DNA of 64,000 nucleotides, taken from contig JASCQW010000128.1 in assembly GCA_030264375.1 (NCBI GenBank), positions 20,554,961 to 20,618,960 on the forward strand, given 5' to 3'. Source of the stretch: Carcharhinus longimanus. Taxonomy: Eukaryota. Both the position numbers and the translations under genes were made by a program. Position 1 is the first letter of the stretch. Every line of letters starts with the position of its first letter. The notes beneath the pieces are model-generated. The model saw nothing but the letters and a program-made list of their open reading frames with translations, ran no database searches and was not told the origin of the DNA. Below, one piece after another: positions 1-31,900 of the stretch.

Positions 1-1179
1 TCTACCTATGTACCAAAAAACAATGAATATTAAAATTGTGATTTATTAACCACTGCCTAAAGCCACCTCTAGCTAAGCTGCTCAAACACCCAATGAGATG
101 CAATCTCAGTGAAGTTTGCACAACTTTCTCCTATCAGGGAGGCATATCAAAAAAGTTCTGTCAGTATTAGAGGTGACATTTTTGTTTTTTTTAGAAAAGT
201 ATCATTTCTTGCAAGAATGTATTTAGCTTTACAATGTCAGCACACACCTTTGGCATCATGCTCTGATGAAAAGAGAGCACCATTAGTTGCAGCCTGCTTA
301 AACAAAAAGAAAATTTGCATAATTAAAATATTTAGGTTTCTGTTAATCTTCTGCATCACTGTTTACAAATGCAATTACGTATCTGCAACACATTTAACAA
401 CAGAATTGTGCAAACCACTATACATGAGTCACATTACTATGCTCTCCCTCTGAACTGTTTTGACCCATTTTAACAAGAAAGATAATGTATCTGGGTTCTA
501 TCTAGAACTAGAAATGCAGTTTACAATTTATTTATACTGTTCTGTGAAAGTCTAGATCATTCACAGTTAACAGCACGCACAGTAAAGCTTTAAACATTTT
601 AAGGTGTACATTAATTATGAGGGGACAGCAACAACAGCCAGACTACTTCCATTTGTTATACATGTAAGGAATAGATAAGGGTAATCACTTTTAGGGACTC
701 AGCCAAAAGGAATCTTTGATAATAAAGCAATAAACAGGATTATTAAAACTACTAATAATGACACTACAATAATGGTGTTCAAATTCTCAACTTTTGTGCC
801 TTAAATTGATCTAGCCTAGATCATCATTGGTCTTTACCGTTTGTATGGATCCGAATCAAGAGGGTAGTTTCCCAGTAGACATGAATCCATGTGCAAAATA
901 GAATCAGTTAGTACAGCATTCTCATCCAGTTTCTTGATTAAACAAACAAACATATCACACTGTCATAGCTGTGCTATTCTCAGAGATTGGTGATAAGGCA
1001 TATTGCTGGTGATAGCAGCAGGAACTTAACCCTAACACATCAGATATTCTGGATCAAATGAACTAATGCAGTTTACCCAAACTCCCACCTTCCCAAAATG
1101 CACAAAGCACTTATCTGCTCCTGCAAAATTATGTTTCCCTACAAACAAGTTCTTTAATTATAGATAATTAAGCTCTCAC

Positions 1180-1236
1180 CTGCGACTCCGTCAGCAAGTG
1201 CAGCAGCCGTCTCAGATGACTTAAGGAGGCTCCATT
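1180..1236 (-). CDS. HELZ-like: HELZ-like coding exon 4 (57 nt, NGASLSHLRRLLHLLTESQ)
   Basis: Acceptor tgcttccag, donor gtgaga; phase 0-0; 8 of 19 residues identical to recalled HELZ NGMVTKDLTRLKTLLSETE. Confidence 0.78.
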
Positions 1237-4200
1237 CTGGAAGCATAAAGCGACATGTGCTTTGTGCGCTATGAATTCTACTGAAATTGCATTAATTAAA
1301 AAACCAATTTCAATTGCCAAAATGCTGACCTACCATACAATCTTCAGTCTTACAATCGCACAAAGCATCATAAACATCCTTCAGTTTTCCCTCTAGAACC
1401 AGTGATGCCAACACATCTCTTAACAGGTTTTCCCCCAGAATTTCATGGAAGCATAAAACTTGGGAACAGAACAGTTAATTAACATGTGATAAGTATATCG
1501 ATCGTCAAAAGCCATACTAAGCATATATATGTTTTTTCAATATTAAAACTTTTAAAGAGCAATTCCTAAGAAACCTCAACTGGATTCATCATATTATACT
1601 TAAATATATAATTGATGCAAGCCGTTTTATACAACTTACCACTTTTACAATCTTCTTCGGCCTCTTTGTAATTCTTCTGTAGAGAAATACAGAAGTGTTT
1701 ACATTTATTCATTCATTCATTGAGGTGCCAAAATACTTAGAATAACTAATATTTAATACTCCTATTTTTCTTAGCAAAATCTATCACATAACATACAATT
1801 TAAAAAGAGTAAAAATTTAGATTGGTTGGTATTCACCTGACATATATTATGCACTACATTTAATTATTCATCTCTCATCTGCACCCCTATAAAGACCGAA
1901 AGAACGCCTAGATCTGTACCTCAAGCCGTGCCAATGATCTCTGATGAACGCAGCAAATATACATTTAAAATTAAAAATGTATTTGTCAATGCTTATTTTA
2001 AATGTATGCCAGCTATTTTCACTGTCAAAATTTACAAAGGGTGTCAGTGTTCATCAGCTCTCTCAATGAAAGCATGTCAGGATGAAGCAACTTTGTAACA
2101 AAAGCTTACATTGTACTATTTATGAAAGAAATTCTTGATTGAACTAAAAGGGATTGCTGGCACATTATAGCATTGAAGTCTCAAGCTGCAAAAACGTGAA
2201 GGTGCTCTCTGTGAAATGTTTCCAACATTTTAGATACACTAATGTTGTGTGCGAAAATACGTCTTGCACGTTCGCTTTTGTAAATTAACTTGACACAACT
2301 AAAGTGAAGGAATAATTTTAGGCCACAATAGTCTGGCTCCCAATGTGCTTTTCTCTGTTTTTCAAGATATAGGCAAAGTAGTCAAAACCAACATAGATTC
2401 TAATATAGACCATGATTATTAAACAGGGTAATTCACAAGGTAAATCTAACATTAAGTTGAGAAATACCAAAATACATTTATAGCATTCAATCAGCACCAA
2501 TGGAATGGAACAATATAGAAAAAGTGCATTTATTTAAAAGTTGTTACCACGTCCTGGACTAAACGGACCAGTTTTTAAAACATCTCTTTTTCAACCATGT
2601 TAGAAACCTAATCACATTAAATTGAGTCACTAAGCCCTCCATATGTTTGCCTCTCTCGCTCTCACACATTCAAAAGAACATCTGGACCATCTTCACCCAG
2701 CCACAGGCAAAACCGGGAATTAATTCCTAATGGCATTCTTCATAGATTTTTAAAACTCTATTTTAACTTCTATTAGCTTGGCTGATTGTTACCACAATCA
2801 ATACCTCCATTAATAATGGAAAATACAGCTGTGTGACTTACTATGTTAGTTGCAAGTGTACCTGTAACTAATACTTTCAAAGCCAACTGAAAGTTCATCT
2901 TCTCTCAAAATCTTAGACTAATTTCTACAAGCTGAGCAAAAATCAAGTTAGTCATATAAAAACCTTTCATGAATAACTTGTATCTTTTTCATTTTTATTC
3001 TAAGTCAGCCCTGTATCAAACCATAATTTCTTGTTTTTTTTAATATCTCCCCTTCCCACCTGCTTTTTCCTTAATTTTTTTTAAGCAGAGTAACTGTTTC
3101 ACTTAAGCAGTTATGTTACTGGGCTAGTACTCTAGTAACCTAAAGCAATAATTCAGAGAAAGTGAGCCCAATTCCTACCAGGGCTGCTTGACAAAATAAA
3201 AGTTGAAATACAATGTTGATACCAGTAGAAGTGACCACAAATTACTGTCAGATTGCCATAAAAGCCCTAATGGCTCACTAATGTACTTTATGGATGGAAA
3301 CCAACCACCCAGTCAGACCTATATCTGATTAGCTCCCACACCAGTGTGATTGATTCCTCACTGCCCCAAAATGGCATTTTGTTGTACAAAACCTCTATCA
3401 ACTTTTTAAGACAGACTATCACCTTCTCAAGGCAACTGGAGATGGACAATAAATGCTAGTGATGTCCTTATTCCAACACTGACTGGCATGTCCTGCAACG
3501 TATCTCCAGTGCCTCCAGTATACGGTCTCCAAACTAACATATATCCATCACAAACATTTCTCCACATTCAATCATCCTCCTGCTCTTTAAACCTTGCAGC
3601 TTGGCAAGAATCCAATAAATTTAGGAAAACACTAACCTTACCCCTGCAATTAAGCTAACTGTATGTACAAATGATATTTAACCAGGTTGCAAATCTTGTT
3701 TAGTACATCTATTACAGTTATATTCACTGATAGACAATACTGTGAAGACATTTTTGTACACTTGGAGATAGCCATTGTTTTCCTGAAAACTGCCTCCCAA
3801 TCTCACCCCTTCACATCATGTACAGAACATTTTTAGTCTTCCGTTCACAAAGTGAATAAATACAATACCTTCTTAGCTCTTGGAAAGCACTGTATATTGG
3901 ATCCATTGAGCTTTATAAGAACGAACATTATATCCTACATTAAATCCAGTACTTTTTAAACGAGCACAGGGAATGTTATTTCCCAAGTGTCAGCGACCCA
4001 TCAGTAACACATCATTAGTCCAGGATAAGTCATGTATTGAGTAAATGTATGATTCAGCTTCTTTTCAGCTCAGATCCAAGTTTTCCTGAACTTCCAAGCA
4101 ACTTAAACTGTAAATTTTTTTTATGTTTGTTTATTTTATTAGTGTCACAAGTAAGCTTACGTTGACGCTGTAATGAAGTTACTGTGAAAATCCCCTAGTC

Positions 4201-7200
4201 ACCACATTCTGTTCAGATACGTGGAGGGAGAATTTAGCATGGCCAACCCATCTAACCAGCACATCATCTGAACTGAGAGAGGAATTTCACACTAAGTTCA
4301 TTGCAGTCTTAATGTAAGCCTTACTTGTGACGAATAAATAAAAGTTAACTTAACCAGAGCTCCCGGAGGAAACCCATGCAGACATGGGGAGAACATGCAA
4401 ACTCTACACAGACAGTCACCCAAGCCAGGAATCAAACCCAGGTCCCTGGCGCTGAGGCATCAGTGCTAACCACAGTGCCACCATGCCACCCCGTTGTCAA
4501 TTATATGGAGGTTTGTTCCTACTGCTTGAGATTCCTAGAACACGAGCTTCCAAACTGTTACTTTTATCCAAGTACAAAAAAGTCATTCAAACCCTCATTG
4601 AAAAAAAAGTGCTTAAGTTCCCAAATACCAAAAGACTGGGTAGCAAGGTCACATAGCCAATGAAAGGCTGCCCATGGTCCTTCATCCACAATATTTTGAA
4701 ATGTTAGGGTTGGATCTTCCTATGTTTATGAATGTATCATGGTGCTCCTTTTTGCAGACAATATTGTTATTACAAGACTCACCTGGGGCCCAGAGCACTC
4801 TATCCAGAATGTTAATCAGTTAAGCTATGAAATATGATAGTGAGTCACATCAACAATAGCTCCACTTCGTAAGCCAAAGAGGGATCTTAACAGGACTTAA
4901 GATATATGTATTACTGATCTGTGTAGTCGTTCAGAACCCTGGCTATGCCAACTTGACCAATCCTTCAGGGCCCTACAGAGATGGTCTTTCTTCAGGACCA
5001 GCCACTTCCTATTCCTAAACAAGCACGTGGTGTGGGAGACTGGTCTGAAACACCTCTTCATAGCCTCCTGGTCTCTGCCTGGTTCAAGATTCAGAACCAA
5101 GCAATGAGATGATTTTGTGGCCTATAATAACTGGTTTCTGTTTATTCTGGAAGCAGCTTCAACCCAGATGCACTTCTCCAGGAAAATTGGTAGATGGGTA
5201 GATCATTTAGCCGTTCATGCCTATTCTGCCATTCAATGAGATTGTAGCTGATCTGTTACATAATTCTATATACCCCTTTAGCCCCATATTCCTTTATCAC
5301 CAATTCAAGACGAGCATAATTAAGCTGTCGGAGATAAGCAAGACTGCTAAACGGTACAGTGGTTGACAAAACACAATATCCTATTGTAGGTCATTCCACC
5401 ACAACAAAGGCAATTTCTGTTGGGAAAACCAAGGTGACTACTACTGCAAGATTTTTACTTGGAGAGCACAAATGGGAGCATGTCAACAGTGGTCTCCAAA
5501 TAGTTGGCCGAGGTCGACAGGTCGAGCCTGGAGTCTTGAAAAATTGATCTTCATTTGCTGCCGAAAATGCACAAGACTTGGGCTTCTTGTGATAACAAGC
5601 AAATCAGCCCATTGACTGCTGAACCTCAAAAATGGCGGAACTTGGGCTTCATATAATGATGACCGAATCAGATCATTGATTTCCATACCACACCAAAAAT
5701 GCGTTGAACTCAGTCTTCTTGTGATGAACTATTCAACTCATCGACTGCCAAACTGCACCAAAAATGCAGGAACTAGAGATGATGGGCAAGTCAGCTTATT
5801 GACTGCCAAACCACGTAGAATTTTCTCATGATGACAAGCAAATCAGCTCAACTGTCAAATTGCAGGTGTCAAATGTGGACTAAGCTGGGTGTAAACAAAA
5901 TGATGAGCGAGGAACCAGTAACCTCCAAGAGGGCAAAAACCTATCATTTCCACTAGGAATGGAAAGTTTTTTTTCCATGAATGTTAAAGGCAAGACCATA
6001 TGTCAATAGAGTATAGCCTTAAGTAGAGGTAATTTTGGAATGGCATCACAAGACAATTCATGCAAAATTTCTAGAGAATTTCCCTTTAAACAGCACTATT
6101 TGGACAAAGAAAGTTGGGGAGTTAAAGGAAGTGTTGCAAGCTCAACTGTCATTCTTTTCAAAACCTTTGGCTAAAGGCAAGGCAAGCAAAAAGACACCTT
6201 TTCACATGAGCCAAGCGTTGTTAAAATGCAAGTTGTTGTTCAGAGATGGTGAAGTTATCAAGGGGGCTACGATGGTTGTTGCTGACATCTTGTTCAAAGA
6301 CTTCAAAAACAAAAATGAAATTATGACAGCTATTAAAAGCATGATGCTTGCTGCTTCAACAGTAGCCAGAAAGTTGGAATTGTTGTTAGAGGATGTCGCA
6401 GCAAATACATCAAGAATTATCAGGCTGTGAATGTTTCTCACTACAGTTTGATGAGTCAGTAGACATGATGGATACAGCCAGATCATTGTTTTCATTCACG
6501 TGGCATTCAAAGATGCAACAACAATGGAGGACTTCCTCACTTTTTTGCCATTCAAAGGGAGGACAAGAGGTGAGGATGCCTACAAAGAATCTAGAAAGGT
6601 ATGTGACTGAGAAAAAACATTAAAACATTCTGGTCAGGAAACTGGTTTCAATCAAACTGGTAGCGCACTGTCAATGCTATGTGTCAACGCAGGCTTTGTT
6701 GCACTTCACAAAAATGATCTTGAATTCCCCTCCTTTGTCAATTATCACTATGTATCCGCCAACAAGTGCTAGTAAGGTTATTGAATTTTCTCATGTAATG
6801 ACAGTCATTGTCAAGATCCCTGAAATTGTCACCTTCCTTAGATCAAGAAATAAGGTGTACAGGAAGCTGACAGGTGACGTGTGGTTGCTCATCCTGGCAT
6901 TTCTCAGGGATGCAAGTATAAAATTGAATGAGCTAAACAGTGAACTGCAGGAGAGGGACAGAGACTTGAATATATTCACTGCACTGATCAAGTATGACAA
7001 GTTGAAACTGAGCCTGTGCTCCTCCCAGATATGGAACAAAATTATTGAGCACTTCTCAAATCTGGAGAAAATCAAACAACAGATCAAACAGAAAAGGTCT
7101 CATCTTGAAAGGCGAAATTCTTCTTGTGAAAAGGAAGATGTATAAAAAAAGATTTCTTATAGCTGAAGATTACTTACTCGGTGATAGAAGTTTAGGAATA

Positions 7201-9191
7201 ATTAATCCAATACAAGAAGCCCGCAAGTCTGCGTTACTCCAGCACATTGTCGATAAGTGGTCAATTTGTCTGCCTTGGTAATGAGCTATAAGAATGGACC
7301 AAACACTGGAGGCTGGAATTTTTCAAAATTTGATTAAGAAAACCCAACTTTCTGCCAGGTATGGCAATCCTAGTTGAAAAAGCAGTAATTCTAGCCCCAG
7401 CGAAACATAATCTTCATTAACCCTTGGCTCTATCAATCTGCATCTCAAGAACAAACTTACGTCGATATAGCACCTTTCGTATTTTCAGGACATCCAATGA
7501 GTATAAACACAACAGCCAATCCCACCGAGATAAGGGACCAGATCATTCATTTTAGGATGTTAGTGGAGGGATTAAATGCTAATTGGCATACAAAAACATC
7601 CCCATATTTCAAATAGTGCTGAGGAATATTTTACATCCACTAGTGAGGATGTAATAAACACAATTTGTTTCTTTCTCACTCCTTTGCAGTATTCTGACTG
7701 GAAGTACAATTTGAGTAGTGTATGAAAGGATCTTAGCCAAAACAGTGTTTGTTTCTGTTCCCTCCCATTTGAACTGACAGATATTGACAAAATGTGAAGA
7801 AAAACCCACTATATTGAGTCCAACAAAATGGATTCAAATAAAAGCAAAACACTGAAAATGCTGGAAATCTGAAATAAAAATTAGGTGCTGAAAAGTTTGG
7901 CAAATCTGGCAGCATCTGTGGGGAGAGAAACAGACACCGACTCTAATATGACTCGAGCTCCAAAGAATCATATTCGTCTAGACACACTAAAATGATTCAA
8001 GTTTGGTTTTCCTGCTGACGGTGCAGCTGGTGCAGAAAATTAGAACTGTAGATGTCCTGTTTAATTCCACACAAAATTACTCTCTGCAACAAACACTAAA
8101 ACAAAGAATTGTTTAACATTTTGCTTAAAGAAAATCTACTCCGAAACTATTTTCTGAAGGAAAATGTGACCAGATACCTGCTCTCAACTGGAGAAAGGCA
8201 TGGTTCCTCAACTTTTTCTTTGCAGAGAAATGTGAAACAGGCAGGTTCCTTTCACACGAAACAAAATTTTTAGAAATAGTCACTTTTCAGAGACAGCAAC
8301 AGAAAGAGCTTTCAGTCACTATTCTATCATGGTTAGTTACAGTTTCTCTTAATTCAACTGCAACTCAAATTGTCATACAGGAAACGTCGACTGTCTCCCT
8401 CAGCAGATGCTGCCAGATCTGAGTTTTTCCTGCATTTTCTGTTTTTATTTCAGATTTCCAGAATCAGCAGTACTTTGCAGAATAGCAACGTGTAAAACAT
8501 TTTGCAAAAAAACAGAATTTGTGGGCTCACCTGAAAGTGCAAAATCTTTAAATAAGTCTGGATTTGTCATGCCTGTGTCAAGAACGCAAGTGTAAGACAA
8601 CAATGGATATGTATTTTTTTTTTAAAAAATGGATATGGACAATTCATCTCGACCCAAAATGGAGCCAGAGTCATGTGATTTTTGTAATTTTTACTCAAAG
8701 AACGAGTTCATGTCTCTGTAAAGTCATTAAAATGTAAATGTCCACGGATAATGTGCTCCTCCCTTGAAGAGGCATTCTAGATTAAAACCACTTATGGTTT
8801 TAGCTTTTTTTCATTATCTAATGGGCAGTGGGCACTCGTGGCAAGGCCACTATTTGTTGCCTATCCCTATTTACCGTTGAACTGAGTGGCTAGCTAGGCC
8901 ACTTCAGAGGCTTTTTGAGAGTTAAACCATAATACTGGTGGTCTGCAGTCACACGTGGGCCAGACCAGGTAAGGATGGAAGATTGCATTCCTAAAAGGGC
9001 ATTAGTGAACCAGCTGGGTTTTTACAACAATTGATGAGTTATTGATTGAATTTAAATTCCACCAGCTGCCATGTTGGGGTTCAGACCAGTCTCCCTCAAA
9101 TACTAGCCTGGGCCTCTGGATTACTGGTCCAGCAACAATATCATTACACCAACATCTGCCCCAATTCTATTTACTGAAACTCAATTTCCCT

Positions 9192-9234
<43 letters not shown>

Positions 9235-12200
9235 NNNNNNNNNNNNNNNNNNNNNNNNNNNNNNNNNNNNNNNNNNNNNNNNNNNNNNNNNNNNNNNNNN
9301 NNNNNNNNNNNNNNNNNNNNNNNNNNNNNNNNNNGAAAACTAACAGAGACTGGGGAGAAGCCAGTTTATTACAATCAAGTGCAAAAAACCACCAGCCACA
9401 CCACTGTCCCCCCGCCACTGTGTGGTAAAGGCCTCTATCATCATTTCATCTATGTCGATAACAGATGTATTGATCATGTGGTCACATGAACAAAACATAC
9501 TAGAGATAACGCACCTTATTAGTCCAAGGACCAGTTAGAGGCAAGTCAGTTTATAGACCAACAGGACGCAAGAGGGACCAACTTCTTACAAAAAGACAGA
9601 ACCCTACTTAACAACCAGTCAACAGAGGCAGTGAGAAAGGTGTTAATTTGTTGCCACCTGAAACAAAAGTTGTTCACTTTTTTTCTAAAGAAGCTTGGAT
9701 GAAACTTTATCTAAAAGACCTGGAGATTTCCAACCTCACATTCAAAGAGCCACAAGAGGGGACCCTACCTCCAGCCCTTTTGACAAGTTTATCCTAAAGG
9801 ACCAATTCAAGCACGTAATCGGTTTCCTTGTTATTCCCTTATCAATCTAAGTGCACCCATCATCTGTAAAACCCATCTTTTCTTGGATGTCTTGGTCTTT
9901 GTGTGAGAGAGTGAATGTTTTAACGCACTTACGTTGTGTGAATAAATGTTTATCTAGTCTTTTAACTTCAACTTACCAGAAAGTCAGTTTCATGTTTTAT
10001 CCTTTAAAGTCACAACACTCAAAGGGATTTATAAAGCTCCCTAAAAATATACATCTTGTTTTGGACAACCAAGAGGTGAGGGAAAAGGTTGTCCCACACC
10101 TCTCCTCATCCATAACAGCATTGAAAAACATACACAACAGATGGTTGATTTGGAATTACAAATGGTAGTTGAACTGAACAATGTCTCTCAAACTAAAGTG
10201 AAACTCAAGCAATTTAGCAAATTTAAAGATATAATCAGTGTCAGGCAGCTATATACAGCCTATAATTTTTACTAAATAAAATATACTTGCACCTCCTCAG
10301 GTGTCCTGGCTCATGTAGGGAAGACATGACTGCCAAACAATTCACTGTCAACTAGTTGAATATGCATTGAATAACACGAGTAATATAACACTCCATTTAA
10401 TTCATGCAAAACACTGGAAAAATATATATACATCACACACTAGCTGTATTTCTACAAAACAGAGGAAAGCAAGATACTAGTCAGATACCTACACACTGGG
10501 AAATGAATAGACATGAAATTGTATTGTTTTCAAATATTCAAATGGATAGAGGTATGTATAATAAACAGGAGGCAAAGTCAGAATTACTACTAGGAGATTA
10601 AACACAGAGAGAGGAACTAAAATAAACTTAAAAGTTATGAACTTGTTACCCTGCCGTAACTATTGAGATAGTGACACATACATTGTTTAAAAAGGAATGA
10701 GTAATAATTAAAAAAGGAGAAAATACAAGTTTTATGCAAGGAAAAGGCCAAGAAATGTAACGAGAACTGACAATTCCAGTTGATGGCACAGGTGTGAGAC
10801 CAAACTGCCTTCTTGTGGGTTCCAGTTTTTAGGTTTCCACGAACAGTCTGCCAGAATGAAATTTTCTACTTCCAACATTTACAAATAGAATTCTTTCCAT
10901 ATGATTCAACTGGGACTAGCCAGACAATGGAAATGAAATTTTCTCATCATTCCTTGGATCAACAAAATAAGTGATCAAAGAACAGGACACCAACCCATTG
11001 TTATGAAGTGCAACATAGCATTATTTCATGATGGGAGAAAACAGCAGGGGGAGTGAATAAGGGATTAATGGAGGTAGAGTTTACAGAAAATGAAAAATGC
11101 ACAGAATAAAGTAGCTACAGAAGAAGGTGGCAGCCATGATGTGGAGATGCTGGCGTTGGACTGGGGAAGGCACAGTAAGAAGTCTCACAACACCAGTTTA
11201 AAGTTTATTTGGGAGCACAAGCTTTTGGAGCGCTGTCTCTTCATCAGGTGAGTGGTTCACAAACAGGGCATATATAGACACAGAATCAATTACAAGAGAA
11301 TGGTTGGAATGCACTCTTAACAGGTAATCAAGTCTTTACAGGTGCAGACAACGCGAGTGGAGAGAGGGATCTTGGGTTCATGTCACAGTATCTGTAACCC
11401 CCCACAATTTGCCTGGCCTTGCAAAATCTTACTAACTGTCCTGGCTGGTCAATTCATACCTCCTTAACCTGTGTTTAACCCTCTGTCCACTCGCATTGTC
11501 TGCGCCTGTAAAGATTTGGTTACCTGTTAAGACTCGCATTCCAACCATTCTCTTGTAATTGAGCGTGTATCTATACACTCTGTTTGTGAACCCAATTCTC
11601 CACTCACCCGATGAAGGGGCAGCGCTCTGAAAGCTCGTGCTACCAAATAAACCTGTTGACTTTAATACGGTGTTGTGAGACTTCTTACAACAAGGAGGAG
11701 GAGGAGGAGGAGGAGGCCATCAAAAACAGCACCTGCTAAACAGAAGCTGCAACCTCAAATCATCATCTTGCAATGAACCAGATTAACTTCCTGAAAAGCA
11801 TTTCTGCAGATTACTATTNNNNNNNNNNNNNNNNNNATACTTACACATTTTACTTTATTTTATAAAAACATGCTCATTGAACTATTATGCACGGTGCATA
11901 AGATGAAATGAATCACAAGAAAATGACATGCAGAAATAAATGTGACAAATAGTATTTTTGAAAATCAAATTTATTAACAAAATTAAAAAACAAAGGAAAA
12001 TGAATTTGATTGTGCTAAATAACCTTACACCACAATCTGCACAATTCACAATAAAAGCTCAGTTCGTAACAAGCATGCCAGTATTTTCCTACGATTATGT
12101 TCTAACAGCACAGTTTCAGTGTATAAATCTATTTTACCTTCTGTAGTTACAAAAATAAATGCTACGAGAACTCACATAACTTCTCCATTTCTTGACGCAA

Positions 12201-14295
12201 AGTAAGACTTGTTCATTTACACGTACCAAGATGAATTGAAATCGCCATGGATTTCAGTTATTGAAGTGTAAGCTTCAACAGAATGGAATAGACCAAATAC
12301 ATATCCATCAAAATGATGGATTTAAATCAAGCACTATGTTTTAAGTCATTTGGTAGTACAGAACTTTAATATAGCTGAAGGGGCAGATACGTTGCAGAAG
12401 TTTTTCATCTTGCATTCATCAGAACAAACACAAGAATGCCAAATTTCAAACAATCACAACAATTCTACAGCAGAAGAGACAAGTCTATTCTGATTCTCAA
12501 GTAACAAGAAAACTATAGAATCCCCATGCTTCTGGGTAATTTAAAAAATATATTTAAATTGTTACATTTTGAAAATTTCAAAAAATGTGTCCAAAATGGG
12601 AATTTATCTTTATTTTAAAAGCTGGCTGTCTCTCTTCAGTAAGGATCAAAATCAAAGACAGGAGACTGATAGCTGCATGCAATGAATCAGTGTCCTTTAT
12701 TCAAAAGCTACTTGACTAAAGGGGTATTTGATAGCTAACATATATAGGGCCATTTTCAGTTTTCTATCCAACAATAAAATAAGCAGACTTATGCTGTGAC
12801 AAAAACAAAAAATAACATATTTAATTTGTTTCATACTCGGTACAGCCCAAATATTGAATTTTACCCATATTTATGATGCTGACTGTGTTGAGCTTTACAT
12901 AATATTCTCATGCATTCTGTTTTTGCTCTTAAGTGTTTGTCGCTTTGTCTTCAAAACAGAAGAGAGTACAATCTTGGTCTATTTTTCAATGTTCCTCGAT
13001 TCTGTCCTTAACAGTAATGAATTTCATGGACATTTGAAGCTCATACATTCAATTTGTAACATAAAAGGAAATAGAAGACAGAAAACTAATCATTTCATAA
13101 AGTAATTGTTACCAGCAGAGATTGCAAGGAACTGTTTGTTTTGGAATGTGGCAAATTAATTGATTCTACTTCTCCATGGTGTATTGCAATAAATAGTGTC
13201 TGGTCTATTTGGCATTTTTGTTGGTATATAAATCTTGACTTTTTTTGTAGGCAGTCATCTGTTGGTGTTGCTTTTTCCACCTTTTCAGGTGACAACAGAA
13301 CATGATGGTCATCTCACATATTCTCCAGCAAGCAATTCATCATGAGTCAAAACATGGCTGTATTAATCCTCATGTGGCAAATAATAAACATGTTTTGGCT
13401 CAGAAGACAGCAAGCTGACTGAAGGAAACAGTAGTTTAATCTAAACACAAGAAGCCATTCAGAAGAAATCCAAAATTGTTAGTGCGGTTTCAAATTTCAT
13501 TCCCTCCAGTTGTGCTAACATTTAACATTCCATTGTTGATTTTGGTAGGTTAATCAAAGCATACCCAAATGTAGACATGATTCTCTCTCTGTAATAAAGG
13601 TCTTAAACCAAGGGCCATTTTTCCACTCCCCCTACTCCTCCTCCCACTGCCCACCACCTCTCCTACCTGATTTTCCAGATTTCCAATGTAGTATCTCAAT
13701 ACAGTGCATTCCCTTGATTCACTGCTGAATTTAGAAAACGTAAATGAGTAACTGAAAAGTCATTGGGAACAACTTCCTCACAGCACCCAAGTTATCTTCA
13801 TCTTTCATTTTGTTTTATTGTGGCTGGATGAACTTGCGCCATGGAACAGAAACTATTCAACCTAGAGTTGGAAATCCATAAAAGGTTGTTCCTTAGAGAC
13901 ATAACTTTTGTCCTTTTGAACCTCAATTTATACATTTCTTTAGAAATAAAATGGAAAATAATTGAACCCGTTGTTCTGTTTGCGTCTGTACCGCTCAAGT
14001 GTATCAACAAAAAAATGATTCCTTGATAAACACAACTGACATTTTTAAGTGCCGTGAAACCTTTTGAATCAAGACATAAATATTGTGGTTAAAATCAAGT
14101 ATTTACCAGCCGTATGAGGCATAAGATTCTGTATAGTAATTCCTGAAGTCTAATAGCCTCGACTGATGCAGTAGAACTATCAGTACAGCTGGTTACACTC
14201 AGCCCTTCCTTGCAGTTATACGTCTGCTTGCACTTCCGCTGCCAGGCCTGCTGGTATGCTTGGTCACAAGACTCTCCAGGCCTTCTTTCAGCCAT
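1180..14295 (-). CDS. HELZ-like: HELZ-like helicase gene (diverged HELZ paralog), 5' coding portion: join of 14295-14107, 1676-1640, 1458-1334, 1236-1180; continues beyond left edge
   Basis: Four GT-AG exons splice in frame (phases 0,1,0,0) to MAERRPGESCDQAYQQAWQRK...RLQELLYRILCLIRL|KNYKEAEEDCKS|VLCFHEILGENLLRDVLASLVLEGKLKDVYDALCDCKTEDCM|NGASLSHLRRLLHLLTESQ. This is colinear with the human HELZ N-terminus as recalled (MEDRRAEKSCEQA...[55 protein letters not shown]...|NGMVTKDLTRLKTLLSETE). Confidence 0.8.
1334..1458 (-). CDS. HELZ-like: HELZ-like coding exon 3 (125 nt)
   Basis: Acceptor ttcccaag, donor gtaggt; phase 1-0; open frame VLCFHEILGENLLRDVLASLVLEGKLKDVYDALCDCKTEDCM with the HELZ-like pattern VL..GE...R.VL....L.GKL..V. 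Confidence 0.8.
1640..1676 (-). CDS. HELZ-like: HELZ-like coding exon 2 (37 nt, KNYKEAEEDCKS)
   Basis: Acceptor ttctctacag, donor gtaagt; phase 0-1; 7 of 12 residues identical to recalled HELZ [12 protein letters not shown]. Confidence 0.82.
3110..3475 (+). mobile_element. Decayed SINE/LINE-tail remnant
   Basis: Motifs typical of shark interspersed repeats (gtgaccacaaattactgtcagattgccataaaa...cactaatg...accttctcaaggcaactggagatggacaataaatgct). A related element lies on the - strand at ~8820-9160. Confidence 0.4.
4125..4492 (-). mobile_element. HE1-like tRNA-derived V-SINE with an inserted inverted tail piece
   Basis: Minus-strand head GGTGGCACTGTGGTTAGCACTG...GGGTTTGATTCC (A/B box-like), central gttctccccatgtctgcatgggtttcctccggg, and tail ttacttgtgacactaataaaataaac. 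Homologous to the + copy at 31063-31342. Confidence 0.75.
5487..7110 (+). mobile_element. Decayed hAT (Charlie/Buster/SPIN-type, GTF2IRD2-like) DNA transposon with frameshifted transposase
   Basis: Left TIR-like CAGTGGTCTCCAAA at 5487 and subterminal repeats at 5580-5875. Broken ORFs 6035-7145 include KRAKTYHFH*EW, FRDGEVIK, CFSLQFDESVDMMDTA (first catalytic-Asp motif of hAT) and WLLILAFLRDASIKLNELNSELQ. Multiple stops and frameshifts. Confidence 0.8.
5580..5875 (+). repeat. Degenerate ~55-65 bp tandem subterminal repeats of the hAT element
   Basis: The unit ...cttcttgtgat(g)acaagcaaatcagc(t/c)cattgactgccaaac...ccaaaaatgc.ggaact recurs about five times. Confidence 0.6.
7841..8478. repeat. 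Inverted pair of short shark Penelope-derived/MITE-like repeats (7841-7933 and 8380-8478)
   Basis: atgctggaaatctgaaataaaaa...atctggcagcatctgtggggagag is reverse-complementary to ctccctcagcagatgctgccagatct...tttttatttcagatttccag. Related copies lie at ~37932-38080 and ~47530-47620. Confidence 0.6.
9340..10117 (+). mobile_element. Probable solo LTR (5' end lost in assembly gap)
   Basis: Non-coding segment with an internal AATAAA (~9941) that ends in cacacctctcctcatccataACA, an LTR-like terminus. No internal ORF. Confidence 0.4.
11137..11688. mobile_element. Penelope-like element 3' ends in head-to-head inverted arrangement
   Basis: 11174-11368 is reverse-complementary to 11480-11688 (gtaagaagtctcacaacacc / ggtgttgtgagacttcttac; attacaagagaatggttggaatgc / gcattccaaccattctcttgtaat). 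Each arm carries a C(T/C)GATGA...stem...(G/A)AAAGCT motif. Confidence 0.7.
11692..11717 (+). repeat. (GGA)n microsatellite
   Basis: aaggaggaggaggaggaggaggaggc seen directly. Confidence 0.9.
14107..14295 (-). CDS. HELZ-like: HELZ-like first coding exon (exon 14310-14107; ATG at 14295)
   Basis: Acceptor ttattgcag at 14311, Kozak AACATGG, 63 codons MAERRPGESCDQAY...LQELLYRILCLIRL, donor gtaaat at 14106. Phase 0 joins KNYKEAEEDC. Confidence 0.8.
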
Positions 14296-14431
14296 GTTTC
14301 AGACCACAACCTGCAATAAATAGTTACAAATTAATTGAAGAAACATTTGTCCGATTGCTTTATACTAGTTTAAAAACAAGTCCTCTCTCATCTTTGCACT
14401 GTATCCAGGGGTACTTAAATACTCAAAATAA

Positions 14432-15500
14432 AATGGGTCTTCTGATTGGCAGTCAGTGACTAGTGGGTTCCGCACAGATCTGTGCTAGGATCTCAACTTT
14501 TCACATTACATATTAATGATTTGGAAGAGGGAACTGAATGTATATTCTCTAAATTTGCAGATGATACAAAGTTGGGTGGGAGGGCAAGATGCTTAAGCAT
14601 TATTTGGACAGGCTGAGTGGGTGGGCATCTGCACAGCAGATGCAGTATAATGGGGATAAATGTGAGGTTATCCACTTTGATAACAATATTAGGAAGACAG
14701 ATTATTACTTGAATGGATGTAAATGGAGAGAGATGGATAATCAACGAGATTTTGGCGTCCTGAAAGTAAGCATGCATGCAGTTGCTGAAAGTAAGCATGC
14801 AGGTACAGCAGGCAGTAAAAAGGTAGCAAAATGGTATGTTCGCCTTCATAGTGAGAGAATTTGAGTACAGTTTTGCTGCAATTGTAAAGAGTGTTCATGG
14901 GGCCACACCTGGAGTATAGGATGCAGTTTTGGGTGACCTTATCTGAGGAAGAGTGTCCTTGCTATAGAGGGAGTACAGCGAAGGTTGACTCGGCTGATTG
15001 TTGGGATGACAGATCTGTCATACAAGGAGAGACTAAGTTGGTTAGGATTATATTCACTGGAGTTTAAAAGAGTGAGGGGAGTCTCATAGAAACTTATAAA
15101 ATTTTAACAAAATTAGAGAGGGTAGATTCAGAAAGAATGTTCTCAATGGTGGGGCAGTCCAGAACTTGCGGTCATAGTTTGAGGGTGAGGGGTAAACATT
15201 TTAGAACTGAGGTGAGGAGCAATTTTTTTCACCCCAAGGGTGATCAATGTGTGGAACTCACCACCACAGAATATAGTTGATGCCAGAATGTTGTCTGATT
15301 TCAAGAAGAAATCAGATATAGCTCTTGGAACTCAAGGGATCAAGGGATCTGGCGGGGGGTGAGGGGGGCAATAAGAATACTGAATTCGATGGAAGATCGG
15401 GATATTAAATTCGATGATCAGCCATGATCAAAATGAATGGTGGAGCAGACTCAAAGAGCTGGATGGCCTACTCCTGCTTCTAGGTTGTATATTTCTATGT
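14432..15500 (+). mobile_element. 5'-truncated CR1 LINE (RT C-terminus plus 3' UTR)
   Basis: [18 protein letters not shown]; [22 protein letters not shown]; gccacacctggagtat...; 3' tail ctcctgcttctaggttgtatatttctatgt. Contains a small 17-bp duplication (14760-14801). Confidence 0.85.
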
Positions 15501-17249
15501 AAGCTGCTTGACCCTCAGCCATAAAATAATTTTCTCCAATTACAATAATTCAGCTCCATTAATCTTCCAGTCATTTTCTTGCTGCAGAGGGCACCTGAAT
15601 ATCACTGACAGCAATACACATTTATTTATGAGAACTTAAGAAAACACATGAAACCCAAAAAAAGTAAGTTACTCAATTTTTAACTATTTGTTATTTGATG
15701 AAATCAATGATTTATTATAATATCCAGATGAAAACAGAAATAATTAACCATCTTTGTAAAACTCTTTTTGGGCCATCTTCAGTGCCTCTATCATTTTATG
15801 ACACTTACAAAGTTTTCTAGGTATAAGATAATCAAGTCCAGTACAAGATGAGCAGAACTTCTCTAATGTCTTCCAAGAATTCAATGAAGCTAGTGAAGCA
15901 AGGCTTTCTCTTTGGAAATTCATATTTATGAGAAATTATTATACATTTGATTTTCCTAAGAGAATTGATCTATAGTTCCTTGGTAATTCCTTCCTAAATA
16001 TAGGCAGCAGCTAGTCTTCTGGTACTACACCTTTTTTAAAAAAGATATATATGAAATAGTGTCTCTGCCATTTCTTCCCTAAGTGTGATACAATCCATCC
16101 AAACCAGTGATTTTATACTGAGCTTTGATTAATTTATATAACGCTATTTAAAATGTGGTTATGACTTCTAATCCCAATACTGTATCATGTTTTCTTAATC
16201 CAACTCATTGGTTAAATAGTGAAACAAAATAATATTATTTCTTCCATTTTGCTATCCCTGCCTTTGGTTTCATTCTAATTGCCCTTTAATCTGAAACATT
16301 TCTAAGACTGTCTGTAGAATATTTTACTACTTTGTTTAATGTTCGTTGATAATTTATTAGTTCCTATTCACCTTCTTTCCTACTCATTTTCTACTCCCCC
16401 AGGTCTTGTTCTCCTCGGCTGTCCACATACACAGTGTCATCCCCTTTCCTTATCCTCATTTTTTCCCTATATGTTTAGTCAGCCATAGTTTCTCATTACT
16501 GTCTAAGCAACAGAATACATTTTTTCCTGGGTTCTGCTGAACACCATTTTAAATGTTTCCCAGTGATGTTTTACATCATAATTCACCACTGAACTGAAAT
16601 ACCTAAACTCCCATGGTGAAATTTGAACTCGTATTCTGTAGAGATTTAAACCAGGTCTCTAGATTGCGAATCCAGTAATGTAACAACTAAATTACCCTAA
16701 CCACTCTTCTTCTTACTTCAACCCTACCATGTTTAAACCAAGGTGTAAAATAGAGTTTTCTACTCCATCTCATTTTTTTGACAGTAGTTCAAATGCAAAA
16801 TTCTCATGACCTCCCTGTGCAGCATTTTGGGAGTTACTCACCATTACTAATTAATTTACCTCATCTTCTATTTATTATTTTTAATCTCTGCTGTAGTCTT
16901 CCAGATTTTAGGTCTTCATCTCACACAACTAAAAAGTGAAATTAATTTGGATAGGTGATGGAGTAAGTAGCGCAGTTGTTACAAGTGTGCAGACAATAGT
17001 TTAATACCTAGCACTCAGTTGACAGTGTCATTTAGAGGTCATGGTAACAGTTAACATTAAGGAGACATCTACTACAGTTGGTGAGATTGCCCACTCGGAT
17101 GGGATAGACATAGATCATTGGAACCAGAGTAAGAAGAGGACTTAATTCTATACTCAGCCCATTCCATAACCGATGACAACATCACTGGGAGCCGGAAGAA
17201 ATTATTTCCAACCTTAATAAGAACAAAAAAGTCCATATCTTCATAAATA

Positions 17250-17382
17250 TGAAGAGGTTTGACATGATCAGGAATAGTCAGCATGGATTTGTCAAGGGCA
17301 GGTCATGCCTTACGAGCCTAGTTGAGTTCTTCGATAATGTGACTGAACACATTGACGAAGGAAGTGCCGTGGACGTGGTGTA
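17250..17382 (+). mobile_element. Young CR1 LINE RT fragment entering an assembly gap
   Basis: MIRNSQHGFVKGRSCLTSLVEFFDNVTEHIDEGSAVDVV is a canonical CR1 RT motif. Confidence 0.85.
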
Positions 17383-25460: not shown

Positions 25461-27439
25461 CAGTGGATAGAGGTGTTTTGTTTTAAAAGCATGAGGAAAT
25501 GGAAGGGGAAGTGATGAGACACTGCTCTTAAGGGTTGCAATGGGCTGTATTGTCAATATCTGTGCTATAAAGTTCTATGATTCTGGGACAGGAATTTAGC
25601 AATCATTCCAGGTTCAAAGGCTGAAAACAAAAACTCAACCCTTGTCACAAAATCAAGCATATCAACACAATGAATAAACCACATCACAAGTAATTTTATA
25701 ACCTACTGAACTGTGAAAATGTTTATATTTTTTAAAATAGTACTACTAAAGATTGCATAGAATAGTTAAAAAAAACTGTTTCACCCAAATCCCTGAAGCT
25801 CACTTTTCACTATCTAAAACATAATAAGTTCTCTGTTTCTATACCCATACTTAATTTGCACCACAGTCCATCTCACTAAAAGTATTTACATTTGGCAATT
25901 TGGGTTCAGCGATGGGAAACCAACAGCTGTGTGCTTGAAACCCAATCATGTTTACAACAGCAGAACCATGTACCAATGACCCCACATTTTAATGTGTCTG
26001 TAGCGCTGGCTGGCTACATTTGCACTATGAAATGCAACTGATGGAGAGTCTGATGGAAGTCATCAACCTGAAACAGATGCTACCTGGCCTGTAGAATATT
26101 CCAGCATTTTAGACAAAGGAAGACTAGGTCTCCCTCTATACAAGTTATCATATTCATATCAGGATATATTGTTTCACAATGTCATTAAATCAGGACCTCA
26201 TAAATTTGTTCTGATGGTTCACTCATAGCACCAAAAGAAATCTGTGAAGTTGGCTATTTCAACCTGCAACTTTTGCTTGTTTTTTTAAAAAATAGTCACT
26301 TTTTACAGCAAGTAGAATGCACAATGTTATGGACGGAAGACAAAACTTAATTCACCACTACTGAAATTTACACAGATTTAGTTTATACGCTTCCAATCCT
26401 GATCAGTTTTAAATTAACCAATATTATACTATCAAATGTCATAGGAATGTCGGTCTTTTTACTACTTCTGTTTCATTACCACCAATAAAAAAAAATGGTG
26501 CTCATTCAAAGTGCTCATGTTGTATCTATCTGAACTATGGATTAACACCCAACAACACAATTTCAAAAACTCTGAGCTTCCAAAATTGAATTGTGCCTGT
26601 AGTGAAAAGAGATTAAATCTACAATGAACATGTTGAGGTGTCTTTAGTAGGATGAAGCACTCGTAGTTTGTCACAAATGATGTTAACAACAGAAGAAACT
26701 TGATATTGTATTTTGGTATTATTCAAACTAATTGAATTATATTGATTTAAGTGTGATTTCCCAACAGTGCATTCAAACCAGCACATCAACCAGCGACAAC
26801 ACAGTTTACGTTGCTCGTTTGACACCAGAATAAGGCTACTTAATGAGAGGACCAGAATTAACAACAGGCTTTCAGGTTAAGACGACATCGCTTTGCCTCA
26901 ATCAATTTATCAAAAATAAAGAGCTGTCGAATGGCAGATCAGGAATGTAAGGAAAACTTTTGTTTGGGAGGGGGCGGGGGAAATCGGGTAGCAGAATTTA
27001 CGCACCAGTTACTACACGTTTTGAAATAAGATAGTTACTTACCAGTTTTATTAGAATTACCTGAAATACACAAATCTGCCAAATGATTGGACGACACGAC
27101 AGAAGGTTAGGGCAGCTATACTGAGCTGGGGCAGCCCGTCCTGAGGACACAGAATAAGCAGCTAATGGTGGGAAAATAAGTGTCCCCATCCAGTTTGTCA
27201 GTTCCCACTTCTGTATTAATACATAAATATTTTCAAAAAGCAACTTAACTTCCTTCATAATTTATATTGAAACATTGAGGAATAAACATAAAAATAGTTC
27301 ACTATAAACGAACTGTCACTCTACCCATCAGATCCCAGCGTTCTTTATCGGCTGTCAGCAAGCGAGGGAAAGCAATAACATGAACACTTTCTGAAAAAAA
27401 GGAGGCAAAGAAAAACAACTTTTACAAGGAGATACCCAC

Positions 27440-27500
27440 CACCGCTCCAACGAACGCCATCTTAAATCTGAGGGAGACGATAAAGCTCGAGCAAGCAGCG
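27440..27500 (-). other. Candidate first (5' UTR) exon of the HELZ-like gene
   Basis: CpG-rich minus-strand stretch ...AAGATGGCGTTCGTTGGAGCGGTG followed by donor gtgggt at 27439. The 5' boundary is uncertain. Confidence 0.5.
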
Positions 27501-27760
27501 CAGTCTCGCGGCGTTTTGGCGGACGGTGGAATTGGCGCTGTGTCAGTGGGGGGCGGGGTCAGCGCGCCGTGATTGACAGGCGGCGTGTGTCACTTCCTTA
27601 GCATCATCACACTCTCGCGGTGATTGTGACGCAAGCGCCCCTGCCCCTATGTGTGGGAAACCCCTGGCGTTATTGCGTTGGAGACGCCATTGTTGTGGCC
27701 GAGAAGTGGTGTCGGTTTGAAATCGTGGGACTTGCCATTAATGTGCTGCCCCTGTCTAGC
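27440..27760. promoter_or_regulatory. Bidirectional CpG-rich promoter shared by RBBP6 (+) and the HELZ-like gene (-)
   Basis: Sharp CpG enrichment against a CpG-poor background. Contains a GC box GGGGCGGGG (27550-27558), two TCTCGCGG motifs, and YY1-type CGCCAT at ~27455 (AAGATGGCG on -) and ~27686. It lies between the two divergent 5' ends. Confidence 0.7.
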
Positions 27761-28776
27761 AGTAAAAGTACTTGAATGGCTACTTATTTATTTTTAAGTA
27801 TTGGCTATAAATGAGATGCAGTGATGAGTGAGAGGTAGGGCCGCTGCAGTGCGAAGATGTGTCTGAGGAACGTTGAGGGGCCTATCGATTGGAGCTAAGC
27901 CTAGGAACCACCCGCCAGGAAGCCGGCCTGTCTTGTGTGCGGTCTGTTTGGAGTGCGGACTTTTGCGTTCCTGCATCACACACAGTTCCCAAATCTTCCC
28001 CACCCACCCGCTCCTCCTCTTTCTTGTTTGCCCCCTTAATCTTTTGGACAATAGACCATGGATCCCACTTGTTCCTGACAAATACTTGCCGAGACAAAAA
28101 AAGAGGCGCACCTCTGGTGATACTGGGGTCTTGTGTGCGTTATGTGTATTTTTCCTCGTTTACTTTACCGTTAATACAAGTGACTTTTTTCATTTAAAAA
28201 AATCCCGTCCCAATCTTATTTAAAAAGGAGACGATATTTAAGAGATGCTCCTGAAGACAGTGTCTGTGGGCGAGAAACTAATCTAGGCACAGTCGTTACA
28301 ACAGGATTTTCCGAATGAAGGAAACCAAGACTCAAACGTGGATCCGATTCTCTTAGATTTTAAAAAAAACTGCGCCGAGAACTACTGCATTGCGGCTTTG
28401 TAATAAAAAGGAAGAGGGAAAATAAACTGAATATTTTTGAACTCTTTACCTTGGGAAATAAATCCTTTGGACTTCGTACAATTTCTTGGACATTTAAACT
28501 ATACCATTGACTTTTGAACTATCCGGTTTATTAGTGAGTAAAACCGCTAGTATTTAATTTTGTGCAATGTGCAGTTGAAAGCGAGCCCGTTATTTCCTGA
28601 CTTTACGTCCAGTATAGTGTTTTTTTTATAAATTGCTTTAATACAACAAAGTCTAAAATACTTGAATTTCAGATATTAAATTGTGAAAAAGAGGATTTTT
28701 TTTTGTTTTTGTGTTTTGCAGTGGTAAAAGGGTAAAACTTTTTTGTGGGTAAGGCTTGTCCCATTAAAAAAACAAA

Positions 28777-28942
28777 ATGTCGTGTGTACATTACAAATTT
28801 TCTTCTAAACTGAACTATGACACGGTCACTTTCGATGGGCTTCATATTTCTTTGAGTGATCTAAAGAAAACCATCATGGCCAGGGAGAAGTTGAAGGCGG
28901 CAGATTGCGATTTACAGATCACCAACGCACAGACTAAGGAAG
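28777..28942 (+). CDS. RBBP6: RBBP6 coding exon 1 (166 nt, DWNN domain)
   Basis: MSCVHYKFSSKLNYDTVTFDGLHISLSDLKKTIMAREKLKAADCDLQITNAQTKE; donor gtaagt at 28943. Confidence 0.97.
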
Positions 28943-31900
28943 GTAAGTTGGCCACAGTGACTTATTTCTACTTAAATACTGTTTATCAATCTGTCCTTTG
29001 TTTCATGTTGCTTCTAACTCCTATGTTACGGTAGACAAGATGGCGCACGTTTGCTGGATTTGTCCGATTTCGTAAGGACGTTGGCCGCAGCAAGCCGAGC
29101 TTATTAACTGTTTTTGGCGCTGCGATATAACTTGCCATAATAATAGCTTCAACCTTCAGTGCAACTTAATACCCATTTATTAAAAAATCACCAAGACACC
29201 ATCTACTTTTTCCTTGTGCTTTTCCGCAAGATAAGTGTTTATCTTTCCCTTTGTCAGTCATAAATTGTGCTCCCATCTCCAAGAGCACATCATGAACTTA
29301 AATAACCCGTGCAAGAACTCCAAACCTCCCAACTAATGTTTCTTAGAGGTCATTTAGCTTTCGCTGCGTCGTCTCGAAGAGTGCCCTTCAGGCGATGACG
29401 GTCTGAAGCAATGTAGTGCGCATGATGACAGTAGTAATTGGCAAAAATTTTCATGTTCGTGGCTGTCCAACCTGGCTTGAATCCTTGTGAAAGCATCGGT
29501 TTTAAAAACCGATTGCAGTGTAAATTGATTTTAAGGTTACGTATTGTCTACCATTGTATTTTTAAATACTGAGTTTTGAATCAATGATTTTAAAAACGAC
29601 TATTTAAGAACACAATAGCTTTAGAGTTTTCAAACGTTGTGTGAAAGCTCATTTGTCATGTATTTTTCCTAATTAGTAGGATTGATCTATTGGAGTGGCT
29701 ATCCTCTGAACAGAATGAAAATTCTATAATGTTGAAGGGACAATTAGTCAACTCTTGTTGATCTAAGCCTAAATCCGCTGCCGTTTTATTGCAAGTTCAT
29801 GTCAATTAAGTTGTGGAATGTAGATACTTGAACTTTTTAATCTAATTGTAGTAGTACTTTCAGCAAGATTTCAGTACCTTATGCTGTCATATAGGAATCA
29901 CATCCCTCTGAGCATGGTATTTCCTTGACGTGCTTGCAGTATCTGACATTTCCTAACATTCCATGTGGGTGTACCTCTACCCATCAGTCCATGTGGGTGT
30001 ACCTCCACCACATGGACTGCAGCGGTTCAAGACAGCAGATTACCACCAACACCTCGAGCGATTAGGGGCGGACAAATGCTGACCTAGCCAGCGATGCCCA
30101 ATATATCACTGTTGTCCAGATAATTGAGATTGCTGTTGTCTGGTTCCACTATTACCAGTGCAGTTGTAGCTAGAGAATGATTTCCAATAGCTTCTCATGC
30201 TTCCATACAGTTGTGTGGAGTTCCATGGGAACTTTTTTCAGCTTTTTACTTGCACCAAGCTTATTACTTGCACAACCTCAGGACGTACAAAACTACCTTA
30301 CAGGCAATGAAATACTCTCTACATGTAGTCTTTGTGGTATATCATGTAATTGTTAAATCATAACACACTGTTCAATTCCATGTGTCTGTTTGAAAAAAAT
30401 CCAGCTCTAACTCACCAGTTTTTCATTTGATGACTTTATTGACTGGTTGGGCTGCTTGTCCGTCATGCAGTCCTGGGTGAGCTAAAATTTCTGTCTGCTA
30501 CATGTTGGGAAGATCAAAGCTATTGTGTTTAGCCATTGCCGCACACTATACTCCTTGCCCCTGATGTCATCTGCCTTCTTGGTCTGCATGTTGCACAGTA
30601 GCAAGTTGTTCACAACCATGATGTCTTTCTGTAAGTGGTCAGCCTCCTATATCTCTCACCCTCAACTTTGTCCTTGTCCAAAGTTCACCAAGTTCCATTC
30701 ACCATCACCACCAATCACTAACGAACAACAATCTCCAGTCCTGTAAATTTTTGGTTTAAAAATTCTGATCTTATTGTTGGAATGTTTCAATGGGCTTCTT
30801 CCAAACTTAGAATCTTCAAAGAACTGCACTCTCTAATGAACCCCGCATTTTCCTCACCCACCAGTGATCATGCTGTCAAGGCTCTCTTAATTCCCTTGCT
30901 ACACCTTTCCATCTCTTGTCATCAGAATTCCTTAAACTCGTGTCTTTGACCAAGCTCTTTGTCACCTGTCCTAGTGTTTTCTTTCACAATGTCAGTTTTT
31001 ACCTGCCTGCACTGCTGTGAAGTTCCTTGAGATGTTTTACTGCGTTAATAGTGTTCTATAAATGTGGCATAGTGGTTAGCACTGCTGCATCACAGCGCTG
31101 GGACCTGGGTTCAATTCCTGGTTTGGGTCGCTCTTGCAGATTCTCCTTGTCTCTGTGTGGGTTTCCTCTTGGCGGTCCAATTTCCTTCCACAAACCAAAG
31201 GAAGTGCTGGTTAACTGCATTGGCCATGCTAAATTCTCTCTGTACCCAACAGGCGCTGGAGTATGGCAACTGGGGAATTTTCATAGTAACATCATTGCAG
31301 TGTTCATGTAAACTTATTTGTGACACCAATAAATAAACTTTGATCTGTCAGACGACATACAGTGATCTCAATTTTGTGTTTCTACAATATTACTTAAGAT
31401 GTCTTGTTTCAATGGATGCTGGAACAAGAAAATTAAATGGCTTGCATGTGTCTTCACTAATGTTGATCAAATGCAGTAAGCTATGATGCAGTACTTTGGA
31501 CCAGCTAGATATTCATGGATAATTTCAAGACTTTGATCTTTGAGTCTTTGCCCAATGTTGATCTCTTGTGGTCTGTGCTGATTGTGTTTCCCGTCATTAA
31601 AAAAGGCTGAGTTGAAGAATATTTCAAGAAATGCGTTCACCATTGTTTAATTATTCAATTTGAATTGGAGAAAAAATAGTAATTTATGATCTTGAGTTCC
31701 TTATATTTAGGACTCCATTCAGTGGCATGTATGGTTCATCCAGTTTGATGTGATGGATATGTGACTCGAAATTCGACTGGAGTTTGCTTATATTTTGACA
31801 GGTTATAGATGAGGATAGCATTTTAATGCTAGTTTGTCAAATAGCATTTTTTTAGCTCCGCAGAATTTTATCTGATTCTTGGCAAACCTGATGGTTATCA

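Follow-up and report, generated by a model that had tools for sequence, protein, structure and literature searches.

The first exons of an intact, spliced paralogue of HELZ were found in a 64,000-nucleotide stretch of the genome of Carcharhinus longimanus (C128:20554961-20618960, hereafter the window). Comparison of its sequence with those of its relatives suggests that in cartilaginous fish the encoded protein probably serves as a pseudo-helicase adaptor on mRNPs and not as an unwinding motor.

An initial annotation of the window had described four small minus-strand exons with canonical splice sites and an intact frame, and their coordinates, GT donors, AG acceptors and single open frame of 136 amino acids were all confirmed. 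Coding exon 1 (14107..14310) comprises 15 nt of 5′ UTR, an ATG at 14295 and 189 coding nt (14295-14107), and its product is 30% identical to the N-terminus of bat HELZ (E 1e-7); an acceptor of its own sits just above 14310, implying at least one non-coding exon upstream. Exon 2 (1640..1676, 37 nt), exon 3 (1334..1458, 125 nt) and exon 4 (1180..1236, 57 nt) lie on the same minus strand, as does exon 5 (248..293, 46 nt), which had been missed. All four are backed by joints in sequencing contigs, and exons 2 and 4 also by a chance control in which stop-free AG..GT stretches of equal length from 614 kb were BLOSUM-scored against the matching peptide of canonical shark HELZ: the 37-nt exon ranked first among 2,006 stretches (score 41, next 18; 7/12 residues identical) and the 57-nt exon first among 1,420 (score 31, next 16; 8/19 identical). 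Exons 6-28, also on the minus strand, lie to the left of the window (C128:20550107-20200961) in a gene model built with 550 kb of leftward sequence and with a sawshark model as guide. Leftward assembly of the full coding sequence, proposed earlier as a check, gave 28 coding exons over 368,295 bp (5,319 nt, 1,772 amino acids, no stop or N), separated by 26 GT-AG introns and one GC-AG intron, and a CCCH finger (exons 6-7), an SF1 core (with Walker A, Walker B and motif VI encoded by exons 13, 16 and 20, respectively) and a PAM2 motif (exon 21) were all located in this frame. Identity over the whole protein falls from 94% with a catshark model to 76% with chimaera and 54% with sterlet, and is 45% with canonical HELZ of ray or bat.

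Junction reads were sought among sequencing runs, 4 of the 13 listed being compared at window positions 150-2000. One 6,339-nt contig of run X1 joined exons 5-4-3-2 at the predicted splice sites, its loose ends matching exons 1 and 6; a contig of run X5 joined exons 3-2-1, with a loose end that read as the 3′ end of exon 1. Contigs of run X8 passed through the introns without joints, and for run X2 no contig was found on this segment. None of the listed runs is on record as RNA; X1 and X5 were guessed to be RNA, and the spliced joints of their contigs support the guess. The paralogue is thus spliced across exons 1-6, the part of the 28 exons that the joints cover. With a 28-exon frame free of stops and spliced contigs at hand, the pseudogene that the initial annotation had considered as an alternative was not what was found.

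The same genome was searched for a separate, more conserved HELZ. With ray HELZ as the query, most exons mapped to the interval 6.55-6.75 Mb of C137, the majority at 75-100% identity, beside CACNG1, CACNG5 and PRKCA; this gene is the canonical HELZ, and a few of its exons are missing near assembly gaps. A 118-aa single-exon query matched exactly two places in the genome. It is the C137 gene, and not that of the window, that falls within the HELZ clade and next to CACNG1/PRKCA, where the canonical orthologue belongs, and a second conserved HELZ rules out the window's gene as the sole HELZ orthologue of the species. Exon 1 of canonical HELZ was found on C190:105548872-105549075 and one internal exon on C61:96451268-96451456, the rest lying on the gapped C137; assembly misplacement is the likely cause.

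A third locus, on C119, has large exons and is 30-43% identical. It is likely HELZ2, a label given without comparison to a named HELZ2 sequence. At C119:38.33-38.37 Mb, AAA_12 matches fall at about 38.370, 38.363, 38.340, 38.335 and 38.333 Mb, which suggests either a pair of helicase domains or multiple copies. HELZ2, an SF1 helicase related to the paralogue, combines an RNB nuclease domain with two helicase domains (PMC10516660). By contrast, the near-identical Mustelus model of the paralogue has, by Pfam, a single helicase core and lacks an RNB domain, and the identification of the window's gene as HELZ2 was rejected on this ground. Its distinctness from HELZ2, claimed at the outset, is borne out by trees and synteny as well as by Pfam domain content.

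The neighbourhoods of the two HELZ genes mirror each other. On C128 the order is PKC-beta (+, with two alternative last exons), CACNG3 (+), the HELZ paralogue (-), RBBP6 (+) and a TNRC6 gene (+); on C137 it is PKC-alpha (+), CACNG5, a third CACNG-like match taken by position only as CACNG4, CACNG1 (+) and HELZ (-). Orientations match between the two, and the 3′ end of each HELZ gene faces that of a CACNG gene some 15-17 kb away. The PRKC, CACNG and TNRC6 families are represented on both C128 and C137, and CACNG and TNRC6 also on C175; TNRC6 genes on all three, the last near another CACNG gene, are as expected of a multi-chromosome paralogon. Human HELZ and RBBP6 lie in the PRKCA-CACNG4/5/1 and PRKCB-CACNG3 blocks, respectively, and the latter is not known to hold a HELZ gene in mammals. 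Among the matches listed there was no third HELZ copy near CACNG2/TNRC6 on C175, and a literature search found no paper on a PRKC-CACNG paralogon. Gene structure agrees with the gene order: for 26 of the paralogue's 27 introns, position and phase agree with those of a canonical HELZ intron at one or both boundaries, and the remaining one adjoins an assembly gap. The copies of cartilaginous fish lack two exons after PAM2, encoding a proline-rich segment that HELZ and the sturgeon copy keep. PKC-beta has its two alternative C-terminal exons, at C128:20108038 and 20119660, and the first matches beta-II structures.

Phylogenies that included invertebrate HELZ placed the window's gene in a sister clade of canonical HELZ and not within it. 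A quick search under a mixture model on 44 rows gave SH-aLRT values of 100 for the paralogue group and 99 for canonical HELZ; a careful tree of 18 rows, rooted on amphioxus, acorn worm and feather star, gave 100/100 for each of the two, as sister clades against invertebrate HELZ. In the latter tree the stem branch of the paralogue measured 0.44, about four times the 0.12 of HELZ, and an AU test rejected a duplication limited to cartilaginous fish (p 5.9e-130), which rules out a shark-specific duplicate. Eel and mormyrid copies both group with the shark copy, so that an origin of these by the teleost duplication is likewise ruled out. Both trees, which drew long-branch or composition warnings for teleost copies and included no lamprey or hagfish sequence, place the duplication after amphioxus and before the crown split of jawed vertebrates; bowfin and moray fragments stayed outside the trees and were placed by BLAST score. 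That the duplication predates the jawed-vertebrate split is nearly certain, and a whole-genome duplication is very likely its source: mirrored neighbourhoods, shared introns and trees all fit the original proposal of a second HELZ derived from vertebrate genome duplication.

The paralogue was recorded in at least 13 named cartilaginous fishes (chimaera and sharks, with whale shark as fragments), 5 acipenseriforms, 2 bowfins, 6 elopomorphs and 3 osteoglossomorphs. Its retention in cartilaginous fish had been predicted correctly, and its confinement to them had not, since sturgeons, paddlefish, bowfin, eels, mormyrids (elephantfish) and arapaima hold it too. Nor is the gene hidden, as first thought: RefSeq and UniRef models exist under the name 'probable helicase with zinc finger domain'. 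Among the matches listed, the paralogue was not found in rays, bichir, gar, clupeocephalans, coelacanth or tetrapods, in all of which canonical HELZ was found. The searches covered the best 120 of 498 and the best 120 of 256 matches, with proteins of 936-3,191 aa as candidates, and 15 of the 20 members of one cluster; the exhaustive search took one protein per 50% cluster. On the basis of these protein searches, the paralogue has likely been lost where it was not found, mammals included. For rays and skates no paralogue appeared among the matches listed, though five ray genera have canonical HELZ models, and a loss in batoids is possible. The bowfin paralogue (P0238, P0274, P0288, P0392) is represented by three consecutive short proteins in Amia ocellicauda and by one longer partial protein in Amia calva, which may reflect either a split in the annotation or early decay.

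Outside the helicase core, the parts of HELZ that mediate interactions are well preserved. The shark protein follows HELZ in domain order (N-terminal helices, CCCH finger, SF1 core, PAM2 and a low-complexity tail), as it does in its introns, in six tail blocks common to both proteins and in a terminal GYYSYF-type motif. A CCCH finger of the form C-x8-C-x5-C-x3-H was present in all full-length paralogues aligned, and the key Phe of PAM2 (LNPLAPEF-type) was kept in 30/30 paralogue rows covering it; Pfam scores for both domains fall just below the cut-offs (20.1 versus 20.5 for zf-CCCH, 17.3 versus 20 for PAM2). According to PMC6769256, human HELZ binds PABPC1 via PAM2 and the NOT module via several tail sites, its N-terminal half being dispensable, and HELZ-C alone binds NOT1, NOT3 and PABPC1. 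The GYYSYF-type motif lies at the C-terminus of the window's gene (C128:20200961-20201100) and occurs in both vertebrate copies, with GLYTYF in amphioxus; it is a candidate short binding motif.

The helicase core was recognized by Pfam (AAA_11, E 2.5e-25; AAA_12, E 1.1e-29), with UPF1 as its best PDB match (E 1.4e-15), and is 99.4% identical to the Mustelus asterias model; a search of the ESM Atlas gave no usable match. At 45% identity to HELZ, the shark copy differs from it by DDASR in place of DEAAQ in motif II, by Asp in place of Asn in motif Ia and by Asp in place of Gly in motif V. Aligned to UPF1, D786/D787 face the DE of motif II and D692 faces the Asn of motif Ia. Codons 786-787 of the window's gene, in exon 16, read GAT GAT, and the Walker B DE is therefore absent, replaced by DD. 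In IGHMBP2, the backbone of the RNA is contacted by the Asn of motif Ia, and the Arg of motif VI is the arginine finger, which contacts the gamma-phosphate (PMC3505976). These sites were surveyed in 401 HELZ-family proteins. Position 787 is Glu in 161/161 vertebrate canonical HELZ proteins that cover it (171 examined) and in 36/36 other HELZ proteins, Asp being found in 0/197 non-paralogue HELZ covering the site. It is Asp in all 13 cartilaginous-fish copies (the window's gene and 12/12 others) and in 2/3 osteoglossomorph copies, namely both mormyrids. The motif VI arginine finger, R1032, is Cys in 6/6 elopomorph copies and Ser in arapaima. Motif V glycine is replaced by Asp or Asn in 13/14 cartilaginous rows covering it, the Hemiscyllium model keeping glycine, and motif Ia Asn by Asp or Glu in 26/28 paralogue rows aligned there; the Stegostoma copy is also changed at the P-loop glycine and the motif IIIa arginine. 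Invariant sites are kept in cartilaginous fish at 50/85 positions in RecA1, 65/92 in RecA2 and 50/64 in the zinc-finger region, so that their loss extends over every region and is not limited to the ATP site, which speaks against decay of the motor alone. No change from K, DE, Q, the two arginines or the motif V glycine is seen in copies of sturgeons and paddlefish (5/5) and of Amia calva, which indicates that catalytic loss is not clade-wide in the paralogue.

These changes suggest how the shark protein might work. Its core would still fold and might bind ATP, as Q638, K666, D786, Q817 and R1032 are kept. Poor ATP hydrolysis is proposed to follow from Asp787 in place of the general-base glutamate, and a weaker grip on RNA from Asp692 in place of the motif Ia asparagine. 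Like the C-terminal half of human HELZ, which needs no helicase domain for these contacts, the shark protein would use PAM2 to hold poly(A)-binding protein and its conserved tail blocks to bring in CCR4-NOT. Human HELZ unwinds RNA-DNA hybrids in a Walker-A-dependent manner (10.1101/2023.12.14.571747); unlike it, the paralogue is predicted not to unwind. A parallel at the catalytic base is the degenerate ATP site of ABCC4 NBD1, which is marked by the same Walker B Glu-to-Asp change (10.1101/2022.12.25.521909). ABC transporters, however, pair a degenerate with an active site in one protein and belong to another ATPase class, whereas the HELZ paralogue has a single site.

In the main alternative reading, the same ancient paralogue would instead be a working helicase, slower or differently tuned, in which Asp787 lowers hydrolysis and does not abolish it. 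Walker A, the Q motif, the motif III Q and the motif VI R are kept in 13/13 cartilaginous-fish copies covering the whole core, Asp787 is invariant from chimaera to sharks, the core is 81-83% identical between shark and chimaera, and sturgeons and Amia calva keep both DE and R. Some changes in shark copies, QYR in motif IIIa and R1024, even move towards the UPF1 residue. HELZ2 offers a precedent: its RNB domain works with a non-canonical residue (PMC10516660), which shows that activity can survive the replacement of a 'catalytic' residue. This reading nevertheless appears unlikely given that not one of the 197 canonical or other HELZ proteins covering the site tolerates a change of E787, and given the nearly uniform replacement of the motif V glycine in cartilaginous fish, the further changes in Stegostoma and the loss of the arginine finger in other lineages.

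Preserved interaction motifs beside a degenerate motor would also fit a competitor of canonical HELZ, one that holds PABP or shared partners without unwinding or decay and so might damp HELZ; the absence of the post-PAM2 proline-rich segment from cartilaginous-fish copies points the same way. The tail blocks common with HELZ suggest, however, that the same effector is still recruited, and such a role would be rather improbable. More improbable still is a nearly dispensable duplicate in slow decay, expressed through its position beside the RBBP6 promoter. The many lineages without the paralogue among the matches listed, the bowfin model in three pieces in one annotation and evolutionary rates several times those of HELZ could be read in this way, but an open 28-exon frame over 368 kb and a shark-chimaera identity of 81-93% by region could not have persisted without selection. 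That the gene is the sole HELZ orthologue, a pseudogene or a shark-specific duplicate, as its sharing a name with HELZ in databases might suggest, is hardly conceivable in view of the second conserved HELZ, the intact spliced frame and the AU rejection.

For the probable pseudo-helicase adaptor, a history can be outlined from the distribution of residues. An acidic motif Ia residue would have become fixed on the long paralogue stem, and catalytic residues would then have been lost separately, by Glu-to-Asp change in cartilaginous fish and mormyrids, Arg-to-Cys in elopomorphs and Arg-to-Ser in arapaima, with sturgeons and bowfin retaining them. We put at about even the chance that this unnamed, vertebrate-wide paralogue, of the same age as jawed vertebrates, became a pseudo-helicase several times independently while keeping a PABP/CCR4-NOT adaptor role, sturgeons possibly representing a still-active intermediate.

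The genes themselves are already in databases under the generic HELZ name, and fast duplicates lost in mammals form a well-known class, which limits the surprise. Bmp16, a 'cryptic' genome-duplication paralogue, likewise evolves faster than its conserved sister gene, survives in cartilaginous fish and has been lost repeatedly (PMC6395752); the HELZ paralogue differs in encoding an enzyme, and different lineages lost its catalytic residues in different ways. It is this apparent repeated, lineage-specific loss, read from protein alignments, that would be new. Literature searches, with subscription papers and some supplements outside reach, found no description of a HELZ paralogue, no SF1 pseudo-helicase of this sort and no Glu-to-Asp data in SF1; the main text of the catshark genome paper makes no mention of HELZ, and in the part of PMC9319325 consulted helz serves merely as a tree root. 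HELZ has two jobs, helicase-independent mRNA decay and helicase-dependent R-loop resolution, and the paralogue, if correctly read, would be a natural separation of the mRNA decay scaffold from the R-loop motor. A paralogue retained ever since jawed vertebrates arose, its adaptor motifs intact and its motor degenerate, would show selection on the adaptor role alone. Where human HELZ binds CCR4-NOT is so far unmapped, and the six conserved tail blocks mark candidate sites. With catalytic residues intact in sturgeon and different ones lost in shark, eel and mormyrid, the series also allows the conversion of an SF1 helicase into a pseudo-enzyme to be tested directly.

Other features of the window were also recorded. 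Intron 1 of the paralogue holds two adjacent open frames, 6023-6430 and 6624-7145 (+), of 135 and 173 aa, which resemble a decayed DNA-transposon (hAT-type) transposase; Pfam gave no convincing match for either. Frames 14565-14864, 17177-17380 and 47951-48367 (+), without a Pfam match at E 0.1, resemble LINE reverse-transcriptase fragments. The first coding exon of RBBP6, encoding the DWNN domain, lies at 28777..28942 (+), with 52/55 residues identical to PDB 2c7h, and the DWNN family matched at the RBBP6 gene only. RBBP6 thus runs on the plus strand from 28777, in the divergent, head-to-head orientation to the paralogue that had been proposed. Its RING-finger exon, at window positions 57894-58139 (+), gave a weak Pfam match (E 0.0013). 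A CpG-rich region at 27250..29750 (observed/expected 0.66-1.02) is a candidate promoter that the paralogue and RBBP6 may share, and donor-like sites on the minus strand at 27440 and 27043 are candidates for the end of a non-coding first exon of the paralogue.
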